Shown here in pieces: positions 2,410-42,273 of a DNA stretch of 50,364 nt. Source of the stretch: a virus (lineage: Duplodnaviria > Heunggongvirae > Uroviricota > Caudoviricetes); IMG/VR virus record IMGVR_UViG_2563366831_000011, positions 1 to 50,364 of that record; one strand, given 5' to 3'. Both the position numbers and the translations under genes were made by a program. The notes under the pieces are model-generated. The model had not been told where the DNA came from and ran no database searches. It saw only the letters and a program-made list of their open reading frames with translations. The number at the start of each line of letters is the position of its first letter. Position 1 is the stretch's first letter.

Positions 2410-3441
2410 TTACGCGAATTCTTCCACGATCGCCATGCCAGTAGCACCATCACCACCGGTAAATGCCGCACCGGTAAACCCAAGGTCATACGCGCCACCA
2501 CCACCGGATCCGGGAGCTGCGCCAGCAATACCGGCCTGAGAACCCGCCCGGCCACCGCCGCCAAAATACGACGCCCCGCCGTTGCCCGTCAGAAGGCTTG
2601 AGCCTGTCTGTCCATCTGAGCCGGTACCACCGTTGATCCTGATATCTCCGGTCGCCGCCGTACCTCCGGCGCCGCCGGCGGTATTGGACACGCCTGACTT
2701 CACGCCGCCTTTCCCGCCAGGAGCTGAGAACAGGCTGGCAAACGAGGTGGCCCCACCATCTGCACCACTTACTGCGCCAACTCCGCCCTTACCACCCTTG
2801 CCGACAGTAATCGCATAAGAACTGGCAGCAGACAGGTCAACCCATACGATAATGGTCGCGCCCGCGCCGCCGCCAGCACCGGAGAAGGTTTCTGTATTGT
2901 TGTAGGCCTGGCAGCCGCCACCGCCGCCACCGGCACCTGTCAACGTTACTTTTGCATAACGGGCCAGAGGAGATCGCGTATAGGTTCCGTTTGCATAGAA
3001 AGCTTTTGGAGCGCCAAGTGAACGCCCGACAAAACCAGAGGAATCAGATATTCCGAGGTTATAACGGGCTTCATTTACCGCATCCTCACCGGCATCTTTA
3101 ATTTCTGACAGGTTATTGCTGATCTGCAGGAACGATAACAATGATCCGGCTGTCATTAAATTCGCGACAATGTCATTCGTTGACCATACGCGTGCCGTTG
3201 TTCCTTCCTGACCACGAATTACTGTCATCACGTCACCGGATACAGACGTTACGTGCATAATTTCAGAAATTGTTTTCGTGGCCGCGTCGGTTATCGTTAA
3301 TTTGAAATAACTCTGCCCAGATACAGGAGAAGGGAATAAAGCCCCCGCTCCAGTTCCCACGGTAATAACGGTAGCGGACGCACTAATACCCGCAGCGAGA
3401 ACACTCTTTGCGTTATTATTGGCTAATAGCTTCAGCGCCAT
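2410..3441 (-). CDS. Tail fibre protein 2 with glycine-rich C-terminal module
   Basis: 343 aa. The N-terminal domain (ITVGTGAGALFPSP...YFKLTITD...VTSVSGDVMTVIRGQEGT) is typical of short fibre N-termini. The C-terminal roughly 190 aa is Gly-rich and paralogous to the C-terminus of the 431-aa fibre at 6914-8209. Confidence 0.7.
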   Translation of the reverse strand: MALKLLANNNAKSVLAAGISASATVITVGTGAGALFPSPVSGQSYFKLTITDAATKTISEIMHVTSVSGDVMTVIRGQEGTTARVWSTNDIVANLMTAGSLLSFLQISNNLSEIKDAGEDAVNEARYNLGISDSSGFVGRSLGAPKAFYANGTYTRSPLARYAKVTLTGAGGGGGGCQAYNNTETFSGAGGGAGATIIVWVDLSAASSYAITVGKGGKGGVGAVSGADGGATSFASLFSAPGGKGGVKSGVSNTAGGAGGTAATGDIRINGGTGSDGQTGSSLLTGNGGASYFGGGGRAGSQAGIAGAAPGSGGGGAYDLGFTGAAFTGGDGATGMAIVEEFA

Positions 3442-3452
3442 ATATACCCCAG

Positions 3453-3770
3453 TTAAATAATAGAATTATCAGAACGAACATCGCAGATAGTAAATGTCAC
3501 GACGCCGATGACAGTAACATCGTCCAGGGCTTCACCCTCGATCACTTCGCCATCTTCGGTAATAAGTGATCTTCCTCTCAGCTTGGCAAGCTCCGTCCCG
3601 CCGCCATGCTGTATAAGCAGTTGGCTACCCTGCTTTGGCTTCAGGGAGATATCTAGTACAACGTAACCACCAGATCGCTCGAAAACTAGCGTGTTTGGGC
3701 CGACATTGCAGATCGAGTTAACAGACAACCTTTGCTCGACGTAGTCCGTCGCTGGTGAAGGGAATCCCAT
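3453..3770 (-). CDS. UmuD'-like (peptidase S24 fold) protein, encoded already 'processed'
   Basis: Starts MGFPSPATDYVEQR, equivalent to UmuD just after its Cys24/Gly25 cleavage site (GFPSPAADYVEQR). The C-terminus VTVIGVVTFTI resembles UmuD DVFGVVIHVV. The start is coupled to the upstream stop through TAATG, with GGGAGGG as the SD. Confidence 0.65.
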   Translation of the reverse strand: MGFPSPATDYVEQRLSVNSICNVGPNTLVFERSGGYVVLDISLKPKQGSQLLIQHGGGTELAKLRGRSLITEDGEVIEGEALDDVTVIGVVTFTICDVRSDNSII

Positions 3771-4009
3771 TAGATCACCCTCCCCATGTTGGCCATCATC
3801 CACAGGCGGTTTTCACTATGCTCTGCCGTTTTATCGATGAAGTAAGACTGCTCGCGAGCGATCCAGGCGTTAGCCTCCACCTCGGAAAAGTGAATGCTAC
3901 GCCGGCGCAGCGCGGTAATGAAGTCGCGGGTGTGAAGGTACTGGAACCCCTTAGAACTGCGCAATACCGACTCGCGGAATGCCTGATTGATGTCTGACTG
4001 TCGATGCAT
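3770..4009 (-). CDS. 79-aa hypothetical protein, first gene of the SOS-box operon
   Basis: ATG at 4009 is preceded by GGAGGG (5-nt spacer). The product starts MHRQSDINQAFRESVLRSSKGF. I did not recognise a family. Confidence 0.6.
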   Translation of the reverse strand: MHRQSDINQAFRESVLRSSKGFQYLHTRDFITALRRRSIHFSEVEANAWIAREQSYFIDKTAEHSENRLWMMANMGRVI

Positions 4010-4026
4010 GTCTTCCCTCCGATAAA

Positions 4027-4080
4027 TACTGTTTTTATATACAGTAGTTTTATTAGAAGGGAAGCTCAAGTGGTTGACAA
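4027..4080 (-). promoter_or_regulatory. Sigma70-like promoter with overlapping LexA (SOS) box
   Basis: Minus strand reads TTGTCA (4080-4075), a 17-nt spacer, TCTAAT (4057-4052), 5 nt, then TACTGTATATAAAAACAGTA (4046-4027). The box has CTG-N10-CAG with an AT-rich centre, close to the consensus TACTG(TA)5CAGTA. Confidence 0.75.
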
Positions 4081-4758
4081 TCAGTTGCCGTACTGGTCTC
4101 TATAGTATGATTTTATTTGTGAAATTTCTGATGTTGTCTTCGAAGTTGAAAAGATAAGAACTTCCGCATAGTTAACGTTATTCGCGGCAGTCGCCGCCAG
4201 CGTTAGCGGAGCATTCTGGTAGGTAATAGACGATGCCGCGGCTACGGTTATGGTCGCGTCGTTGACATACACCGTCTCGGTGTCAGTTATCGGGTCGTAG
4301 TTCACGATCACAAGATCAATGCCTGTGGATAAGGTCACCCCTCCCTGCTGGGTTGATGACCCTGTTTTGTAATAGTAGAGCTTGTTATCTGTCTGTGCCT
4401 GTAGCCGCAGATGGGGCCCCGCGATTAAAAAGGTAGCTTGTGTGGTGTTATCTCGCTTGAAAGCGAAGGCGTAGCAATAGCCGTTTTCCGCTGTAGCAGG
4501 GTAGACATTCTCAGATGTGACGCCGCCATTTGCGGTTAGCGCACTTTTCATCGTCTTGATTCCGTTCAGCGTCGACGCTGAGATTGCAGAACCTAATGCA
4601 ATATTCATATCGCCAGCGCGGTCTGCAAGAGTTGATACTCGCCAGTCAAAATAGTGCGAAGGGTTCCACCTGGCTGTTTTATCATCGCGCTCGGTATAGG
4701 TGGACTGAATACCGCTATTAACGGCGTTTGGAACCTGTAAAAAAGTACAAATTGCCAT
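4081..4758 (-). CDS. LamG/concanavalin-A-like lectin-fold protein (accessory receptor-binding candidate)
   Basis: 225 aa, beta-rich. The C-terminal signature NYAEVLIFSTSKTTSEISQIKSYY resembles the LamG-domain ending (..v.iy.raLs..Ei..l). It sits between fibre and spike genes. Confidence 0.5.
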   Translation of the reverse strand: MAICTFLQVPNAVNSGIQSTYTERDDKTARWNPSHYFDWRVSTLADRAGDMNIALGSAISASTLNGIKTMKSALTANGGVTSENVYPATAENGYCYAFAFKRDNTTQATFLIAGPHLRLQAQTDNKLYYYKTGSSTQQGGVTLSTGIDLVIVNYDPITDTETVYVNDATITVAAASSITYQNAPLTLAATAANNVNYAEVLIFSTSKTTSEISQIKSYYRDQYGN

Positions 4759-4769
4759 GGGTGTATTCC

Positions 4770-6899
4770 TTATTTTCTTAGGGATTGTACGGCGTAGTTC
4801 AGCAGTACTCGTTTTGCCTGATACGCGCCGATAATTCTGGCACCTCTGGCGTTAGGATGTGGGTCTGCGGGATTTGTTGTCGAATATGCATAGCCGTTCT
4901 GAAATGCAAAATTAGAATTCTTTATGAGGTCTCTTACATTGAATCCCAGCATTTTATAGGTTGACTGGATATTATCAAAAACGCTCTCACGCTTAATGTG
5001 ATTGTCGCTATACCAGCGCTCAAGGAAAATAGGCAATTTAGGAATCGCTGATTGAACACGTTCAACTATTGCACTATATCCGTTGAGAAAATCTGTGTCA
5101 GAAAGAGCATAATCATTTTCCCCAAGATTAATAAACGCGACATCCGGCTGAAAATATTGTATCCAGTATTGCTGATAAGACGCTGTTTGATTCAGGTAAT
5201 ACTGAAATGTTGCACCTCCTCTTGCGTAACGAATGACTCTGACGCCGCCAGCAGAGTTGATGCAATTGAAGCTGATCAGGGCAGGATAGCCTGCCTGACC
5301 AGATGCGGGAGGTTCAATTTCCAGGGCGAATCGACCTGAGTTCGGCCCCAGACCCTCCACCCTAACGATTGTTATCGTTTCGCTACCCTCAGGGTTATTC
5401 GGTATTGTGGCTGTTTGCCATTCCCCTGAACCCGCCGGGCCGGTGGAACCATCGTCATTCCTGTCGGTTGCACGGAACCGGAACTGACTAGATGTTCCGG
5501 CGTCTCCGGTACCAGTAAAACCGACCTCGACAACGTCGTGCTGATAAATGGGGTTGCTGCGGGCCGAATCTTTTACGCGAAAAAACAGGTTAGTTCGTCC
5601 AGCCCACGGTACTAGAGCAAAACTCAATGGTGCACATTTTTTCCCATAGGTCTGGTTATCGACCCAGCCAGTATAAACTAACTCCATATTCAGCAGATCT
5701 CTTGACGCTGTGTTATCGTTTGACGGTGCAAAATAACCGATACCCCCATGCCCAAGATTTGCTGCAAAAAGGCTGTACATAGCGTCAATGGCACCCAATC
5801 CCCCTGTGCCTGCAGTGAGAGAGTCACCCTGACAAAAAATAGTTAGATATCCTCCTGTGTATGCCCTTTCCTGCATCGCGATCATGTAATCAAGAAGACC
5901 AGTCTCTGGCAAGCTTGATGCAGCCTGAGAACCTCCTGACCCCGGCAATAGCAATTGGTCGTCGCTTCCGAGAATAGCGAATGGCGAAGATGAGTAGCCC
6001 TTTAAAATAGAACATCCGGCATCTTCTAAAGAATCAGTAGTTAAAAAAGATGCCATCTGGTTATCGCTTCCCATTACAGATAATGGCTTGCCTGGGATAC
6101 CGTAACCATATTTGATATCTGCCCCAGCATCGCGCATTCTGTCGCTATCATTGCCGTATTCAAGGACCTGATAATCAGTGCCTATGATTACGAATTTTTC
6201 ATCTCCGTATCCACTAAGAAATCTTACCCCTGCAAATATCCACGTTGAGGGCATCTGACGTCCGGTAGGCTGCAGCGTTCCGTCAACGTTTACTACCTCA
6301 ATAGCGAGCGTGTCGTCATTGTCAGTGCGATAATAAGCATTTGACCCAACAGGAATATTTCCAGCGTCTGCATCTGCCTGCGCCGCAGCCAGCGTCGGAA
6401 ACTCGCGGATTGTCCCTGTTATGGCCGCTGTACCCGGCTGCTTTGCCTGCAATACGGCCACGCCTGCTTTGTTTTGATACTGCCATGCAGCAGAAAGCGC
6501 ATCTGGACCTTGGGCTACCCAGAATGACTGCCCTTCAGTCGTTGCGGCCAGCCCGGCAATAGTGCCATCAGGATCGCTTGAGGTTTTATAGAATGTGAAC
6601 TTATTCCGTGCATATTCAGAGGCATCATTCTTGTACTCTTCAGCCTGCGCAGCTGAACCTGCGGCTGCCGTTGCCGATTCGGATGAGGCAGCGGCCGAAG
6701 TAGCAGCACTTTGTTCGGCCGTTTCTGCTGAGTTCTTGGCAGCTTCAGCCGCAGTTGCAGCATTAATCGCTTCCTGAGTGGTGGCGCTAATATCCTGATA
6801 GCCCTGCTGGACCTCGATCAGGTACTGCTTTGCCTCTGCGGCACTCACGGACGCCTCTGCCGCGAACTGTGCCGTTTGCTGTGTGTCGGTAGTCGCCAT
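4770..6899 (-). CDS. Tail spike/fibre with C-terminal SGNH (GDSL) esterase domain
   Basis: The N-terminus is an Ala-rich coiled-coil fibre shaft. The C-terminal half carries block I CQGDSLTAG, block III INLGENDY and block V DPHPNARG, all SGNH hydrolase hallmarks. ATG at 6899 follows AGGA; a GTG at 6920 is an alternative start. Confidence 0.7.
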   Translation of the reverse strand: MATTDTQQTAQFAAEASVSAAEAKQYLIEVQQGYQDISATTQEAINAATAAEAAKNSAETAEQSAATSAAASSESATAAAGSAAQAEEYKNDASEYARNKFTFYKTSSDPDGTIAGLAATTEGQSFWVAQGPDALSAAWQYQNKAGVAVLQAKQPGTAAITGTIREFPTLAAAQADADAGNIPVGSNAYYRTDNDDTLAIEVVNVDGTLQPTGRQMPSTWIFAGVRFLSGYGDEKFVIIGTDYQVLEYGNDSDRMRDAGADIKYGYGIPGKPLSVMGSDNQMASFLTTDSLEDAGCSILKGYSSSPFAILGSDDQLLLPGSGGSQAASSLPETGLLDYMIAMQERAYTGGYLTIFCQGDSLTAGTGGLGAIDAMYSLFAANLGHGGIGYFAPSNDNTASRDLLNMELVYTGWVDNQTYGKKCAPLSFALVPWAGRTNLFFRVKDSARSNPIYQHDVVEVGFTGTGDAGTSSQFRFRATDRNDDGSTGPAGSGEWQTATIPNNPEGSETITIVRVEGLGPNSGRFALEIEPPASGQAGYPALISFNCINSAGGVRVIRYARGGATFQYYLNQTASYQQYWIQYFQPDVAFINLGENDYALSDTDFLNGYSAIVERVQSAIPKLPIFLERWYSDNHIKRESVFDNIQSTYKMLGFNVRDLIKNSNFAFQNGYAYSTTNPADPHPNARGARIIGAYQAKRVLLNYAVQSLRK

Positions 6900-6913
6900 A
6901 ATTTTTCCTGTTA

Positions 6914-8209
6914 TTACCACTCGATATGCACAATGCCATCGGCGCCATCGCCGGACGGGTAAGCTATTCCGCTGAAATCAATATCGTAAGCACCACCACC
7001 GCCAGAGCCTGCTGCTTTCCCTTTCACACCGCCGGTTGCGCCGCTGCGTCCTCCGCCACCCCAGAACGAAGCCCCGCCAGAACCGGTAAGCATGTTGGTC
7101 GCAGCCTGGCCGTCATGACCAGTGCCACCCTGAATGTTGATATCGCCACCTGACGCAACACCGCCATCACCACCGGCGCTGTTCACGATGCTGGCCTTGT
7201 TGGATTTTTTTCCACCGCGGCCGAAGATGATCCCACCCAAAGAAGAGTCACCGCCGTCATTGCCCGATACGGCACCTAAAACCGCTGCACCGCCTTTGCC
7301 GACGACAACGGATAAGGTCGTTCCCGGGACAACGTCCAGCCAGCCTAAAGCTGTACCGCCAGCCCCGCCACCGCCACCGCTATAGGACTCACTTGAGGAG
7401 GACGCCTGACAACCGCTTCCGGATCCGCCTGCACCCGTCACGGTGTAACGAATGCGCGTCACCCCTGCAGGCACGACGAACGAATACGTCCCGTTGACTG
7501 CGTAAGCGATGTTTCCGTGAGGCTTCGAAAGGGAGGTTACGTTGGTTCCATCGGAGTGGATTTGCGTAACCGTTCCTGGCTTGCTGACAACTGTTGCGCC
7601 CGCCGCCCTGGTACTTAACTGAACGTAGTAAGCGCTGCCGGTGCAGTTATTTTCGATGGTCCAGTCTTTCACCCATGGAGGGAGATATAGGATCCGGTTA
7701 CCAGTTAGCGCGCCGGTGAGAATTAGCCGTGGGTTAGCAGCCTGCAGATCGGTGGCGTTAACGTTAGCCGTCGATATTGAAATGCTGGCCGCTCCGCATC
7801 CCCATGAAGGCATCCAGCCAGATGCCGTTGCATCGGTTTTTTCCGGTGCGGTGTTATTGGAGTCAATGGTGTTGAGCCACGACACCGAGTAATCGCTGGA
7901 AGGGATCACCGCACCTTTAGGGTAGCCTGAAATTGCTGTTCTGAAATCTGCGTTAAAGGGGTACCCCATCCCGGCATCCGACCATTGCAGGCGAGTGTAA
8001 AGATCATTAAAAATGCCGTTAAAGTCCTGACCCTTTGGCGGCTTACCGCCGGCAGAAAGTGCGATACGGGTCAGCGGCGGGAAACCGGAATCCATAGCCG
8101 CCAGGCCGTCGGCCAGCGTTTCAGAGGTGGAATTGACCGGGATCGTGTTTTTGTCGCCGCTCGCAGAAAATACAACCGTCAGACGTGACGGTATGGCTGA
8201 ATTATTCAA
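6914..8209 (-). CDS. Tail fibre protein 1 with glycine-rich C-terminal module
   Basis: 431 aa. The N-terminus (GFPPLTRIALSAGGKPPKGQDFNGIFNDL...GYPKGA) resembles the baseplate-attachment region of myovirus fibres. The C-terminal roughly 195 aa is Gly-rich and paralogous to 2410-3441. Confidence 0.75.
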   Translation of the reverse strand: MNNSAIPSRLTVVFSASGDKNTIPVNSTSETLADGLAAMDSGFPPLTRIALSAGGKPPKGQDFNGIFNDLYTRLQWSDAGMGYPFNADFRTAISGYPKGAVIPSSDYSVSWLNTIDSNNTAPEKTDATASGWMPSWGCGAASISISTANVNATDLQAANPRLILTGALTGNRILYLPPWVKDWTIENNCTGSAYYVQLSTRAAGATVVSKPGTVTQIHSDGTNVTSLSKPHGNIAYAVNGTYSFVVPAGVTRIRYTVTGAGGSGSGCQASSSSESYSGGGGGAGGTALGWLDVVPGTTLSVVVGKGGAAVLGAVSGNDGGDSSLGGIIFGRGGKKSNKASIVNSAGGDGGVASGGDINIQGGTGHDGQAATNMLTGSGGASFWGGGGRSGATGGVKGKAAGSGGGGAYDIDFSGIAYPSGDGADGIVHIEW

Positions 8210-10442: not shown

Positions 10443-11447
10443 TCAGTAGCGATGCAGTGAAGGCGGCAACTCTTTGTTCTTAAGTCTTACCCATGCGGAA
10501 AGATTCGTTGGTCCGTCTGGCTCATTGATATCAACATCTCGTGTGTGGTTGATTAAAACGTCTCTCGCCATTCCGATAACATACGAAAACTCATGACCGT
10601 AGTCGTAGCATCTTCCGGAATAGTTCGATTGAATTTGTTTTAATGCCGGATACAGTTCGCGGAATAATGCCTGTGATCGGTTAGCATAATCCCACAACCA
10701 TACAAGGCTGTTTGCTTCTTTTGCAGAAAGCTCGTTGGTGCTCTTCTCTTGTTTGCCAATGAACTCACCTTCAAGTGGAACTCGAGCTGCAAGTGACAGT
10801 GCTTCGGTAAACTGCTCCTCACTGATTTCTTTGTACGAACAGCCAAAATGAGATTTCAGTGACGACCACATAGTGATCATCGCCTTCGCCTGTTTTTCTT
10901 TTGGCAGAGACTGACCGCGACTCATGACGAGTTGTTTAATAGCTTCCTGCTGTTCAGTGGTGATTTTACCCGGCAACACCTTTTTAGCTTTGCGCGGGTT
11001 AACCACATGGCCTTTAGTCCAGTACTCGTAGAGCACATCGTCACACTCTTCCTGATACTGGATTACCTTGTCGCGGATTTCAGGGCGGACTTTGTTTGGT
11101 TGAATGCTTGAAAGCCAAGCCGCAAATTTACGAAAGGCAAGACATGTCATTAACTGTTTACCGCCAGCAGAAGGTATTTCGATTTCCGAAATACCTTTGG
11201 CAAACCTCTGTTTTAACTTAACAAATTGAGCAGCCCAAACCATCCCCATACCTTCAACAACAGGCTTCATAGGAACATAAGGCTCATTGTTAATTCCAAC
11301 CAAAAAGAGATTTGTTCCGTGGAATGGAACATTGATTGTGCGATCTGCAATTGCTAAACTAGTCATATCAGTTTTCTCGTGGTTAACTGGTAATTTAGAA
11401 GCCTCAATGGTTGCAGCCATTGAGGCTTCGCTGTTTTTAGCGACCAT
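10443..11447 (-). CDS. ant: Antirepressor Ant (P22 Ant-type N- and C-domains)
   Basis: 334 aa from [13 protein letters not shown]. The segment [29 protein letters not shown]...LKQRFAKG resembles the P22 antirepressor N-domain. The start overlaps the arc stop (ATGGTCGCTAA). Confidence 0.75.
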
Positions 11448-11610
11448 TCGCCACCTCTTCCCTAACACCTTTTGCCAGCAAACGAACAATTGCAGAGTTC
11501 AGAGATATACAGTCCATTTCCGCCAGGCGGCGAAGGTCTTCATTCAGCCGTGATGGAAGGCGAAGGTTGAGTTTGATATTTTTGCGCTCAGTGAAAAGTG
11601 TATCTTGCAT
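11437..11610 (-). CDS. arc: Arc-like ribbon-helix-helix repressor (57 aa; below the ORF-track cutoff)
   Basis: My own translation: [57 protein letters not shown]. It has the RHH pattern (beta-strand KLNLRLP plus two helices), an AGGAG SD, and sits immediately upstream of ant as in P22 immI. Confidence 0.7.
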
Positions 11611-11717
11611 TATCTAATCTCCTTTATTTGGTGCCAAAGTGACACCATGAAGGCCATGATGCCACCATTGAAATCGTATGGCAATATGGCACCATGATTT
11701 TTTTTGAGAGATTTGCA
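11611..11717. promoter_or_regulatory. Divergent promoter/operator region of the immI-like module
   Basis: Near-palindrome TGGTGCCAAAGTGACACCA (11629-11647). Repeated TG(G/A/C)CACCA motifs at 11640-11647, 11660-11667 and 11687-11694. The region lies between the divergent arc and mnt-like genes. Confidence 0.5.
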
Positions 11718-12038
11718 ATGGCCGAAAAACAAGTAAAAGACTACGACAAGTTCAACCTCCGTTTTCCTGACGGAATGCGAGATGCTATAGCTGAACGAGC
11801 CAAACGAAACGGGCGCTCTATGAACTCAGAGATTGTTCAGATACTGGAAGATGCCTTGAATGCAGAAAATACACTCGGGGAAATAGCAGATAAAATTAAC
11901 AGCGTCTCGGTTCCGCTAAATGTTGATGCGCTAGTTCAACTTCAAGCCCAGGTTATCGCCATGCAAAAAGAAATACAGGAAAAGTTCAGAGAGCAGAACG
12001 AAAAGTTGAGAGAACTGCTAAACAAAAAACCCACCTGA
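11718..12038 (+). CDS. Mnt-like repressor with Arc-type RHH N-terminal domain
   Basis: 106 aa from MAEKQVKDYDKFNLRFPDGMRDAIAERAKRNGRSMNSEIVQILEDAL, an Arc-domain pattern, with a coiled-coil C-terminus. It is divergent from arc-ant as mnt is in P22. Confidence 0.65.
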   Translation: MAEKQVKDYDKFNLRFPDGMRDAIAERAKRNGRSMNSEIVQILEDALNAENTLGEIADKINSVSVPLNVDALVQLQAQVIAMQKEIQEKFREQNEKLRELLNKKPT

Positions 12039-12049
12039 CGGTGGGTTTT
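12024..12049. terminator. Bidirectional rho-independent terminator shared by the convergent mnt-like and lipoprotein genes
   Basis: A6-CCCACC-TGAC-GGTGGG-T4. There are U-tracts on both strands. Confidence 0.75.
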
Positions 12050-12051
12050 GG

Positions 12052-33494: not shown

Positions 33495-33570
33495 TGGTGC
33501 TGTTTAACGGACTTGAACCGCTACCCATTCGCTTACAAGGCGACCGCTCTACCATTGGAGCTAAAACAGC
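33495..33570 (-). tRNA. Phage tRNA-Thr (anticodon UGU)
   Basis: The reverse complement is GCTGTTTTAGCTCCAATGGTAGAGCGGTCGCCTTGTAAGCGAATGGGTAGCGGTTCAAGTCCGTTAAACAGCACCA. It has a 7-bp acceptor stem, the anticodon loop CTTGTAA, and a T-loop TTCAAGT. There is one mismatch at the base of the anticodon stem. Confidence 0.75.
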
Positions 33571-33575
33571 ATGTT

Positions 33576-33650
33576 TGGCGGGACAGCGTGGACTCGAACC
33601 ACGATAAGAAGGTTAACAGCCTTCCGTAATGACCTTTATACGACTGACCC
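33576..33650 (-). tRNA. Phage tRNA-Asn (anticodon GUU)
   Basis: The reverse complement is GGGTCAGTCGTATAAAGGTCATTACGGAAGGCTGTTAACCTTCTTATCGTGGTTCGAGTCCACGCTGTCCCGCCA. It has a perfect anticodon stem GAAGG/CCTTC with loop CTGTTAA and a T-arm CGTGG-TTCGAGT-CCACG. There is one acceptor mismatch and a weak D-stem. Confidence 0.7.
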
Positions 33651-39876: not shown

Positions 39877-40155
39877 TCAGGCCTCAAAACTGTTGCAGCA
39901 GTCTTGAGGCTTTTCTTTTGTCAGCACCATGGCTACTTTCTTTGCCAGCTCTGCTAATTCCTCGTCTTCAACCCCCCACTCCAGCACAGCCAGAAGCATG
40001 GCCATCTTTGGGATAAAGCTGTCTTTCCATCGCGAAATTTGCGATTCATTAATCCCTAATGCATCAGCAACCTTTCGCTGACCACGTACAGCAATTCGAT
40101 TCAGGATGTTGCTTGTAATTGCATTCGCTTTCTTGCGAGTACTTGTAAGTTGCAT
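39877..40155 (-). CDS. cII: CII transcriptional activator
   Basis: 92 aa. ...SQISRWKDSFIPKMAMLLAVLEWGVEDEELAELAKKV parallels lambda CII SQISRWKRDWIPKFSMLLAVLEWGV. Confidence 0.85.
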   Translation of the reverse strand: MQLTSTRKKANAITSNILNRIAVRGQRKVADALGINESQISRWKDSFIPKMAMLLAVLEWGVEDEELAELAKKVAMVLTKEKPQDCCNSFEA

Positions 40156-40234
40156 ATGTAAGTATTTCCTTAGATAACAATTGATTGAATGTATGCAAAT
40201 AAATGCATACACCATAGGTGTGGTTTAATTTGAT

Positions 40235-40266
40235 GCCCTTTTTCAGGGCGGGGATGGGTAAGAGCG
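40235..40266 (-). promoter_or_regulatory. nutR (boxA CGCTCTTAC, boxB GCCCTGAAAAAGGGC)
   Basis: Read on the minus strand between cro and cII. It matches lambda nutR as I recall it. Confidence 0.8.
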
Positions 40267-40273
40267 GGGTTAT

Positions 40274-40483
<210 letters not shown>

Positions 40484-40500
40484 TTAGTACATGCAACTAT

Positions 40501-40564
40501 TATCACCGCCAGAGGTAAAATAGTCAACACGCACGGTGTTAGATATTTATCCCTTGCGGTGATA
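40501..40564. promoter_or_regulatory. Lambda right operator OR1-OR2-OR3 with pR/pRM
   Basis: OR1 is TATCACCGCCAGAGGTA (40501-40517). OR2 is CAACACGCACGGTGTTA (40525-40541). OR3 is TATCCCTTGCGGTGATA (40548-40564). Confidence 0.9.
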
Positions 40565-40571
40565 GATTTAA

Positions 40572-41288
<717 letters not shown>

Positions 41289-41306
41289 TAGGAAGTAAGT
41301 TTTATG

Positions 41307-41335
41307 TTGACGGCACAGTCAACTTGGCATAGATT
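41307..41335 (+). promoter_or_regulatory. Promoter-like element TTGACG-17 nt-TAGATT downstream of cI
   Basis: The -35 is at 41307-41312 and the -10 at 41330-41335. The -35 lies within the inverted repeat GTTGAC-ggcaca-GTCAAC. Confidence 0.4.
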
Positions 41336-41345
41336 AATTAAACCA

Positions 41346-41406
41346 AGCCCAGCCCCGTTCGCAGACAATTGTTAATATCTGCATAACGGCTCTGGGCTAT
41401 TTTTTT
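41346..41406 (+). terminator. Long imperfect hairpin followed by a T-tract, 10 nt before the NYN-gene ATG (terminator/attenuator-like leader)
   Basis: Paired blocks are GCCCAG/CTGGGC, CCGTT/AACGG and GCAGA/TCTGC, with loop CAATTGTTAATA. These are followed by ATTTTTTT (41399-41406). Confidence 0.5.
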
Positions 41407-41415
41407 GGGACTCTT

Positions 41416-42273
41416 ATGAAGAAAGCAGCAATTTTAATTGATGCGGGTTTTTTCATGCAGCGTGTTCATGCTACGCATCGTAAACACTTCGCCGAGCATG
41501 AACTGACTGCGCAATGCATAATGAAAGTAATATGGTCAATGGTTCTTTCCCATCTTAATGGAAAACGTCAATCACAAGAACGTAGGGAACCGCTTGAGCT
41601 TTATAGAATTTACTTCTATGACTGTCCACCACTCGACATTCAAACACGCCTTCCACTTCCTGAGCATGGCAATAAGACGCCTGGTCGCAAGAATTTCAAA
41701 CTCGAAAAATCATATATTCTGAGAACGGAGCTGCATGAAGAGTTAAGAAAAACTCGAAAAACAGCCTTAAGATTAGGGAATCTTGTTGATAATAAGCGAT
41801 GGCAACTAACTACATTCTCCCTTGATGCTCTGATGAAAGGAACGAAAAAATGGGATGAACTGACAAATGATGATTTTTACTATGACATCAAACAAAAACA
41901 AGTTGATATCAAGCTAGGGATGGATATCACGACTTTAGCTTATGAAAAACTTGTTGATGTAATTGTCCTTGTTGCTGGGGACTCAGACTTTGTGCCTGCC
42001 GCCAAACACGCCAGAATTAAAGGTATTGATTTTATTCTTGATCCACTAAGACAGAATGTTACCCCATCACTGTCAGAGCACATTGATGGAGTTCAGTCAT
42101 ACAGCTTGATATCAGGACTTGCCGATGCTTTACATGTTGAGCCAGACCCGGCACCTGACTGGTGGGAAGATCGAAAAAAAGGCAAGCCTAGAGGAAAAAA
42201 CAATAGCGGTAAACGCAGGTATGGAAACACTCAAGCTGAGTCTGCAAAGAAACATCAAAGAAATAAACGATAA
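41416..42273 (+). CDS. NYN/LabA-like (PIN-like) predicted ribonuclease with a Lys/Arg-rich C-terminal tail, in the rexAB position
   Basis: 285 aa. NYN-type motifs are KAAILIDAGFF (N-terminal Asp), DIKLGMDI and VIVLVAGDSDFVPAAKHARIKGIDFIL. The C-terminus is KKGKPRGKNNSGKRRYGNTQAESAKKHQRNKR. It is AT-rich relative to the lambda flanks. Confidence 0.6.
   Translation: MKKAAILIDAGFFMQRVHATHRKHFAEHELTAQCIMKVIWSMVLSHLNGKRQSQERREPLELYRIYFYDCPPLDIQTRLPLPEHGNKTPGRKNFKLEKSYILRTELHEELRKTRKTALRLGNLVDNKRWQLTTFSLDALMKGTKKWDELTNDDFYYDIKQKQVDIKLGMDITTLAYEKLVDVIVLVAGDSDFVPAAKHARIKGIDFILDPLRQNVTPSLSEHIDGVQSYSLISGLADALHVEPDPAPDWWEDRKKGKPRGKNNSGKRRYGNTQAESAKKHQRNKR

Follow-up and report, generated by a model that had tools for sequence, protein, structure and literature searches.

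Why would a temperate phage carry what looks like a ready-made subunit of a mutagenic DNA polymerase, with no polymerase gene beside it? The question is raised by a pair of small genes on the minus strand of the IMG/VR virus record IMGVR_UViG_2563366831_000011, a Caudoviricetes prophage of which we analysed positions 1 to 50,364 (hereafter the window). The pair encodes proteins of 79 and 105 amino acids and stands behind a LexA box of the SOS response. A preliminary description had noted there a GGAGGG Shine–Dalgarno sequence, the 79-residue open reading frame (ORF) and a TAATG-coupled 105-residue ORF, all of which we read at the same place. We see about an even chance that this cassette is a LexA-repressed moron derived from umuDC, which supplies pre-activated UmuD′ to the UmuC of the host as HumD of phage P1 does, with the 79-residue protein as an accessory.

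The LexA operator and its promoter

The LexA box, TACTGTATATAAAAACAGTA, occupies positions 4027–4046 of the minus strand, and its left arm TACTGT (4046–4041) is also a −10 hexamer. The CTG-N10-CAG site that had been picked out here is unique: the 20-mer occurs once in the window even when 3 mismatches are allowed (0 expected from 100 shuffles), and the only window occurrence of the looser CTGT-N8-ACAG pattern is the same box. The box is identical to the operator of Escherichia coli K-12 umuDC. It has the form of a LexA-regulon operator, a 20-bp palindrome resembling TACTG(TA)5CAGTA with CTG-N10-CAG and an AT-rich centre, and it overlaps the core promoter, so that LexA could occlude RNA polymerase.

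The promoter had been proposed to consist of TTGTCA (4080–4075) and TCTAAT (4057–4052), separated by 17 nt within 4052–4080 of the minus strand, with TCTAAT 5 nt upstream of the LexA box. Both hexamers are present, but the conserved promoter lies elsewhere. The TTGTCA/TCTAAT pair is found only in the closest relatives (loci L002, L003 and L079), and a consensus scan did not list TCTAAT because it has no −11 A; the pair is probably fortuitous or secondary, and lineage-specific. We place the functional promoter at TTGAGC (4069–4064), 17 nt and TACTGT (4046–4041), since this layout is conserved across homologues and shared with umuDC. As a −35 element we accepted a TTGA-type hexamer that agrees with TTGACA at 4 or more of its 6 positions, 16–18 nt upstream of TACTGT. 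When 69 unique homologous upstream regions are aligned, a TTGATC-like hexamer nearly always lies 17 nt before TACTGT (63 of the 69), and the spacer and outer flanks are variable. Where the window has TTGAGC (4064–4069, minus strand), E. coli umuDC and most homologues read TTGATC; the K-12 umuDC promoter has the same layout, TATTGATCTGC...TACTGTATATAAAAACAGTA, and many phage loci also share the ATTGATAGCC element that lies upstream in K-12. We regard these resemblances as evidence that the promoter and operator were inherited from umuDC.

Conservation of the operator was assessed in 80 IMG/VR loci that encode close relatives of the 79-residue protein. CTG-N10-CAG is retained 34–43 nt upstream of the ATG in 69 of them, with invariant arms and a variable spacer, and it is likewise present in distant homologues, in keeping with the LexA control that had been proposed from the window alone. 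The canonical box precedes all of the more distant pairs, among them those of HK140 and Eeyore (~50% identity) as well as those of Erwinia phage 59, Pantoea AH07 and Cronobacter phiES15 (33–38%), and it is also present in HK225, N15, P1 and IncX3 plasmids. Among the exceptions, nine loci (L009, L010, L019, L061–L063 and L069–L071, about 3078–4000) have a group II intron with a reverse-transcriptase ORF directly upstream, replacing the promoter; in one (L033) the box is cut by sequence matching the ISKox3 junction of an IncX3 plasmid; and in one (L040) the upstream sequence is unrelated. The palindrome of the LexA box is thus an insertion hotspot in related loci, used by the group II intron and at the ISKox3 junction.

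Megablast similarity to other phages begins between 4069 and 4051, and the flanks of the cassette differ on both sides among loci. Because similarity starts at the promoter and the surroundings change, the cassette behaves, as far as sequence comparison can tell, as an autonomous, mobile unit.

The coupled proteins and where they occur

The 105-residue ORF (3453–3770, minus strand) starts at the ATG at 3770–3768, which shares one base with the stop codon of its upstream neighbour in a TAATG overlap. Its product begins MGFPSPATDYVEQR, coinciding with the equivalent of UmuD Gly25; alignment thus bears out the earlier proposal that the protein starts where the UmuD cleavage product does. It belongs to phrog_3469, 'UmuD-like protein' (PHROGs, E 3e-46). 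Pfam, including Peptidase_S24, gives no match, phmmer against the Protein Data Bank (PDB) matches UmuD′ through the first 43 residues, and a profile of the subfamily aligns residues 2–97 with residues 25–137 of PDB UmuD (E 3.5e-9). The preliminary description had made an S24/UmuD′-like β-fold a test of its reading; the predicted structure has this fold, and UmuD′ is its best fold match.

Conservation is concentrated at the N terminus. The arm is identical to UmuD residues 25–40 at 12 of 16 positions and the core at 17 of 82. Every homologue begins with (M/V)GFPSPAxDY, precisely at the Gly25 equivalent, and a diverse alignment of the family has 18 invariant positions, half of which (9/18) fall in the first 12 residues. 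Judged from these alignments, the N-terminal arm is the part of the protein under the strongest constraint. Methionine aminopeptidase cleaves off Met before Gly, so the mature N terminus should equal that of UmuD′.

The catalytic centre is lost. As had been noticed, there is no SGDSM motif: in an alignment with K-12 UmuD, a 12-residue deletion spans the Ser60 loop. The window copy has a counterpart of Lys97, which some members of the subfamily lack, and the combination that marks a self-cleaving S24 peptidase, a serine in G-D/N-S-M with a general-base lysine, does not occur in this protein, which is predicted to be neither able nor in need to cleave itself. It scores 49.2 bits (E 4.6e-13) against the NCBIfam 'HumD family' model NF051876, which has an equivalog cut-off of 120, and is by this measure a relative of HumD and not an equivalog. 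The family has its own acidic motif, DGExIEGEALDDV, which is not in UmuD and is modelled as a short helix at residues 79–84. In many phage UmuD′-like proteins of both subtypes, the C terminus is a shared acidic stretch and then P-V/I-I/L/M (as in DDCPVI); E. coli UmuD is without this tail, and so is the window copy, which ends SDNSII.

The first gene of the pair (3770–4009, minus strand; ATG at 4009, TAA at 3772–3770) encodes a small basic protein. Its Shine–Dalgarno sequence GGAGGG lies at 4015–4020 on the same strand, and homologous loci likewise have a GGAGG ahead of the ATG. The protein falls into phrog_3893, a PHROGs family of unknown function (E 8e-39); it has no match in Pfam, NCBIfam, PADLOC or the PDB sequences, and in BFVD it matched nothing outside its own family (the HK225 homologue). 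A confident structural model predicts a winged helix of topology H1-S1-H2-H3-S2-S3, whose putative recognition helix carries a conserved acidic (D/E)-A-N-x-W-I-E motif. The family is narrow, with 74 representative clusters among 1.84 billion proteins, and those of its members whose source was inspected come from phages, prophages and plasmids of Enterobacterales. Its C terminus has a conserved NMGRV in one clade and NPNGG in the other. The NMGRV codons contain the internal Shine–Dalgarno sequence of the 105-residue ORF (GGGGAGGG, 3778–3785, minus strand), and in the NPNGG clade the codons AACGGAGG likewise contain that of the downstream gene. Both ORFs are under purifying selection, with median dN/dS values of 0.18 and 0.09.

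An identity of the 79-residue protein with DinI or ImpC was considered and rejected: hhalign against the DinI of HK140 gives a probability of 0.1%, there is no Pfam match and the model is a winged helix. The analogy with ImpC drawn in the preliminary description accordingly falls.

The box, the coupling and the gene pair recur in about 70 of the 80 related viral loci, in phages of Erwinia, Pantoea and Cronobacter, in N15-like phage-plasmids and in IncX3 plasmids, and the cassette is found at the fibre/integrase end of many temperate Klebsiella phages and E. coli prophages. In a Salmonella N15-like phage-plasmid its position is equivalent, ahead of sopBA and the gene for the protelomerase; in the IncX3 backbone it is the locus commonly labelled 'umuD'. 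It is carried by 181 of 5,426 complete E. coli genomes, about 970 plasmid records have a homologue of the 79-residue gene (those sampled being mostly conjugative plasmids of IncX3 size), and one 90%-identity cluster of the 105-residue protein has more than 2,000 members.

The 79-residue gene is almost always followed by a UmuD′-type gene, with an overlap of stop and start codons or a gap of at most 2 nt. In most phages this partner is of the 105-residue type; HK140 and IncX3 have the longer one, of the HumD type. Each gene also occurs alone behind a LexA box: the 105-residue type in Kp4872-1 and ST11-OXA245phi3.2, the HumD type in N15 and P1, and the 79-residue gene in HK225, where it is divergent from dinI and a DNA invertase takes the place of the UmuD′ gene. 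In Eeyore (L005), HK225 (L006) and HK140 (L087), the cassette and a phage dinI diverge on either side of a single LexA box, which lies in the short intergenic region, and form a small phage-borne SOS locus.

No polymerase partner accompanies the pair, as the preliminary description had stated: tblastn with K-12 UmuC against the window reached a best E of 0.14, identifying no umuC, and Pfam scans of the large ORFs of the window found no Y-family domain. Nor is umuC annotated in the phage, phage-plasmid, IncX3 and Pantoea plasmid neighbourhoods inspected, a survey that did not take in the 80 IMG/VR loci.

A possible supply of UmuD′ to host UmuC

The proposed supply of UmuD′ would work as follows. 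In a lysogen, LexA would bind the operator that doubles as the −10 element and keep the pair silent. Strong DNA damage should derepress it late in the SOS response, at about the threshold of host umuDC, because the operator sequence is identical. During lytic growth, late transcription of the tail genes should also read through the cassette, as no terminator precedes it. The 105-residue product would be a UmuD′ mimic made already 'cleaved', with the Gly25 arm at its N terminus after removal of Met. It would dimerize and may join host UmuC in a Pol V-type translesion polymerase, bypassing the slow RecA-dependent cleavage of UmuD as reported for P1 HumD. The translationally coupled winged-helix protein would most likely be an accessory or regulatory factor in the same pathway.

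Two lines of evidence lead us to infer the partnership with UmuC: the record of HumD and a model of the UmuD′ arm. P1 HumD, a homologue that stands behind a LexA site, is annotated in its record as functionally complementing UmuD′. HumD was reportedly the subject of work by McLenigan in 1999, as relayed by a paper that cites it. The preliminary description had invoked HumD as an analogue, and the likeness extends to homology with HumD, N15 gp26 and HK140 gp28. Structural modelling has the N-terminal arm of UmuD′ docking alongside UmuC's active site, and work cited in the same study found armless or N-terminally altered UmuD′ to be defective in mutagenesis (PMC11791011). An AlphaFold model from that study has the cleft of UmuD′ receiving the C terminus of UmuC (PMC11791011), with a conversion of its residue numbers to UmuD that we infer.

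The NF051876 set comprises P1 HumD, N15 gp26, phiKO2 gp23 and HK140 gp28. Like the window protein, its members are borne by phages or phage-plasmids without umuC, start at the UmuD Gly25 equivalent, have a GFPSPAxDYVExR arm and lack the Ser nucleophile. A LexA box directly precedes HumD and N15 gp26 and stands before the HK140 bicistron, as it does before the window cassette. The two types are about 30–36% identical (HumD versus the 105-residue protein), but HumD has ~129 residues, and the window type, at 105, has lost the active-site loop through the 12-residue deletion, is shorter in its distal region and carries DGExIEGEALDDV as a motif of its own. Moreover, P1 and N15 are without the 79-residue gene, whereas the 105-residue type is usually preceded by one. 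With E. coli umuDC the cassette shares an identical SOS box, the same −35, spacer and −10, 12 of 16 residues of the arm and the best fold match (UmuD′). It differs in having neither umuC nor the N-terminal 24 residues of UmuD, in being without the chemistry of self-cleavage, and in having the unrelated 79-residue ORF as its first cistron.

The 'umuD' locus of IncX3 plasmids likewise has a homologue of the 79-residue protein (34% identity) directly before a UmuD′-type gene and behind a LexA box; its UmuD′, however, is of the longer HumD type. In the two IncX3 plasmids examined (L097 and L098; NZ_CP034965.1 and CP021901.1; bicistron at 3001–3599), IS26 truncates the 3′ end of the UmuD′ gene beside the resistance region, and in pNDM5_020032 (L097) the LexA box is cut by ISKox3 (about 2900–3000). 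The impCAB operon, too, is controlled by LexA and places a small gene, impC, before the UmuD-type impA. ImpC is DinI-like. The order of a small first gene and a UmuD-type gene under LexA control is the same in the cassette, but the 79-residue family is an unrelated winged helix and no impB or umuC follows.

Several observations weigh against a straightforward supply of UmuD′ to UmuC. The 105-residue type scores below the HumD equivalog cut-off. Its Ser60 loop is lost, the equivalents of UmuD E93 and T95 are not conserved and K97 is missing in some members; with its cleft so remodelled, the core may no longer bind UmuC as UmuD′ does, and the DGExIEGEALDDV motif hints at a different partner. Nearly identical 79-residue proteins pair with very different UmuD′ cores, and each gene is able to stand alone, so a specific complex of the two proteins is unproven. 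A bolder proposal, that the 79-residue protein is a new component of mobile Pol V-type mutagenesis and a dedicated partner of pre-activated UmuD′-like subunits, is in our view doubtful; such a partner would, for example, load, stabilize, target or gate the UmuD′–UmuC complex.

Prophage setting, other explanations and significance

The prophage adjoins yfdC (1–933) and tRNA-Arg(CCT) (1009–1083) and has a P4-type integrase at 1209–2405; when the 3′ end of tRNA-Arg was sought elsewhere, as the sign of an att duplication, no second copy was found. The exact 79- and 105-residue proteins are present in E. coli records. The element is a mosaic, with a lambda-type immunity region and myovirus-like tail and baseplate genes. 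Its CI (40575–41288, plus strand, 237 residues) is of the lambda type, with HTH_3 and Peptidase_S24 domains, an AG cleavage site, GNSM and FKKL. The immunity region (39877–42273) is essentially that of lambda, with lambda-type OR operator sequences at ~40495–40565 and cII at 39877–40215 (minus strand); an NYN-domain ORF (41416–42273, plus strand) occupies the position of lambda rexAB and may serve in exclusion or defence. Within the tail/baseplate cluster lies a P22 immI-like mnt/arc/ant module (10443–12050), at which no LexA box is present. Its Ant, which probably starts at the ATG at 11447 (minus strand), has P22_AR_N and P22_AR_C domains, and ant overlaps an Arc-like ORF of 57 residues (11437–11610, minus strand); a divergent ORF of 114 residues (11694–12038, plus strand) has a terminator-like hairpin just upstream. 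Phage-borne genes for tRNA-Thr(TGT) and tRNA-Asn(GTT) lie between the early and late regions (33495–33650, minus strand).

The bicistron sits at the distal end of the fibre/spike gene cluster (2410–8209), beside the integrase. The cluster has two fibre-like genes with glycine-rich domains (6914–8209 and 2410–3441). Between them is a gene for a 716-residue protein with an SGNH/GDSL hydrolase domain (4770–6920), probably a receptor-modifying tail spike, after which comes an ORF of 225 residues (phrog_19416, no known function). The stop codon of this last ORF (4083–4081) abuts the promoter region of the cassette. On the other side, the 343-residue fibre-like gene (2410–3441, minus strand; Pfam Gly_rich_2, tail-fibre PHROGs) follows the 105-residue ORF after a gap of 11 nt in which we found no terminator-like site, in agreement with what had been reported. 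With the upstream stop codon abutting the promoter and no terminator downstream, the pair is set off by a terminator on neither side. The suggestion that an SOS-transcribed fibre gene forms part of the unit does not hold, as no more than 6 of 75 related loci have a homologue of the 343-residue gene downstream of the cassette; SOS-driven fibre expression is thus at most a local side effect.

It is tentatively possible that the UmuD′-like protein is a modulator of the SOS response, more like DinI or PsiB in function than like HumD, and works as a decoy or a dominant-negative partner. RecA filaments, LexA or the clamp might be its targets, or it might form heterodimers with the host's UmuD or UmuD′; SOS mutagenesis, recombination or the cleavage of repressors would then be tuned or damped, with the winged-helix protein as a co-factor. 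The remodelled catalytic cleft and the family-specific acidic motif, with its helix at residues 79–84 in the model, keep this a serious rival, and the single LexA box that the cassette shares with a divergent dinI in HK140, HK225 and Eeyore would also suit it, as would the LexA-controlled phage operons that pair small proteins with DinI-like modulators of RecA (PMC3121763). Set against these points, the strongest constraint falls on the arm, which in UmuD′ serves UmuC; the closest characterized relative, HumD, is recorded as promoting mutagenesis; and hhalign found no similarity of the 79-residue family to DinI. Those phage operons also inspire a different explanation, one that we consider unlikely: the 79-residue protein would bind and inactivate the repressor of its own prophage or of one residing with it, in the manner of Tum, AntC and GfoA/GftA, and the UmuD′-like gene would be a companion SOS gene in the place of dinI in the Gifsy and 186 operons. 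In 186 (Tum), N15 (AntC) and Gifsy (dinI-gfoA/gftA), an SOS box outside the immunity region drives a small protein and an SOS-related companion (PMC3121763). The cassette resembles all three in these respects, and Gifsy dinI-gftA and 186 tum in architecture; the 79-residue gene does occur next to dinI without a UmuD′ gene in HK225, and Fels-1, which has a cleavable repressor, still carries a trans-acting antirepressor (PMC3121763). No sequence relation to the antirepressor operons was detected, however, and the cassette is also on conjugative plasmids. Whereas the antirepressor class has a non-cleavable cognate repressor, the CI proteins of the window prophage and HK140 are of the lambda type with AG, G(N/D)SM and FKKL intact and should cleave themselves. 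The prophage already has a P22-type Ant module, the 79-residue gene rarely occurs without a UmuD′ gene coupled to it, and the pair sits on the IncX3 conjugative backbone with no phage repressor annotated in the flanks inspected. The antirepressor role that the preliminary description had entertained is therefore unnecessary in cis, given a self-cleaving CI and a separate Ant, and is possible only in trans.

Two further explanations start from the pairing itself. In LexA, a winged-helix domain that binds DNA is linked to an S24 domain. Since both folds are found here in adjacent, coupled ORFs whose junction lies at the cleavage-site equivalent, the two proteins might assemble non-covalently into a two-piece, non-cleavable regulator of the LexA/CI kind, made only during SOS. 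This is very unlikely: the conserved (D/E)-A-N-x-W-I-E motif makes the recognition helix acidic, near-identical 79-residue proteins occur with very different S24 cores, and each gene is found alone in some loci. An acidic motif of this kind is atypical for DNA reading. That the genes form a toxin–antitoxin, abortive-infection or other defence pair triggered by DNA damage, as also suggested earlier, we find scarcely credible. A small coupled bicistron in a hotspot of prophage accessory genes between tail fibres and integrase would fit such a pair, but neither protein has a PADLOC match at E ≤ 0.1, the folds (a winged helix and a dead S24 domain) are not toxin-like, and homology points to umuDC.

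Orphan genes for pre-activated UmuD′ behind LexA boxes were already known from P1, N15 and phiKO2, so a mobile element that lends a polymerase accessory subunit is not a new idea, and an SOS-controlled UmuD′ moron would be unsurprising to a specialist. What is new is a shortened UmuD′ subfamily without the active-site loop, its tightly coupled and conserved winged-helix partner, which seems to be unstudied, and the evidence that the promoter and operator were inherited from umuDC. A literature search on the bicistron, including the winged-helix partner and the short subfamily, found no paper, and both appear to be undescribed. The cassette is abundant in clinical Klebsiella, in E. coli and on IncX3 plasmids, and thousands of Klebsiella and E. 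coli prophage sequences carry it. If it alters SOS mutagenesis, it bears on the evolution of lysogens and plasmid carriers under DNA-damaging antibiotics; and if the 79-residue protein is a Pol V factor, it could influence damage-induced mutation rates and the evolution of resistance in clinical Enterobacterales.

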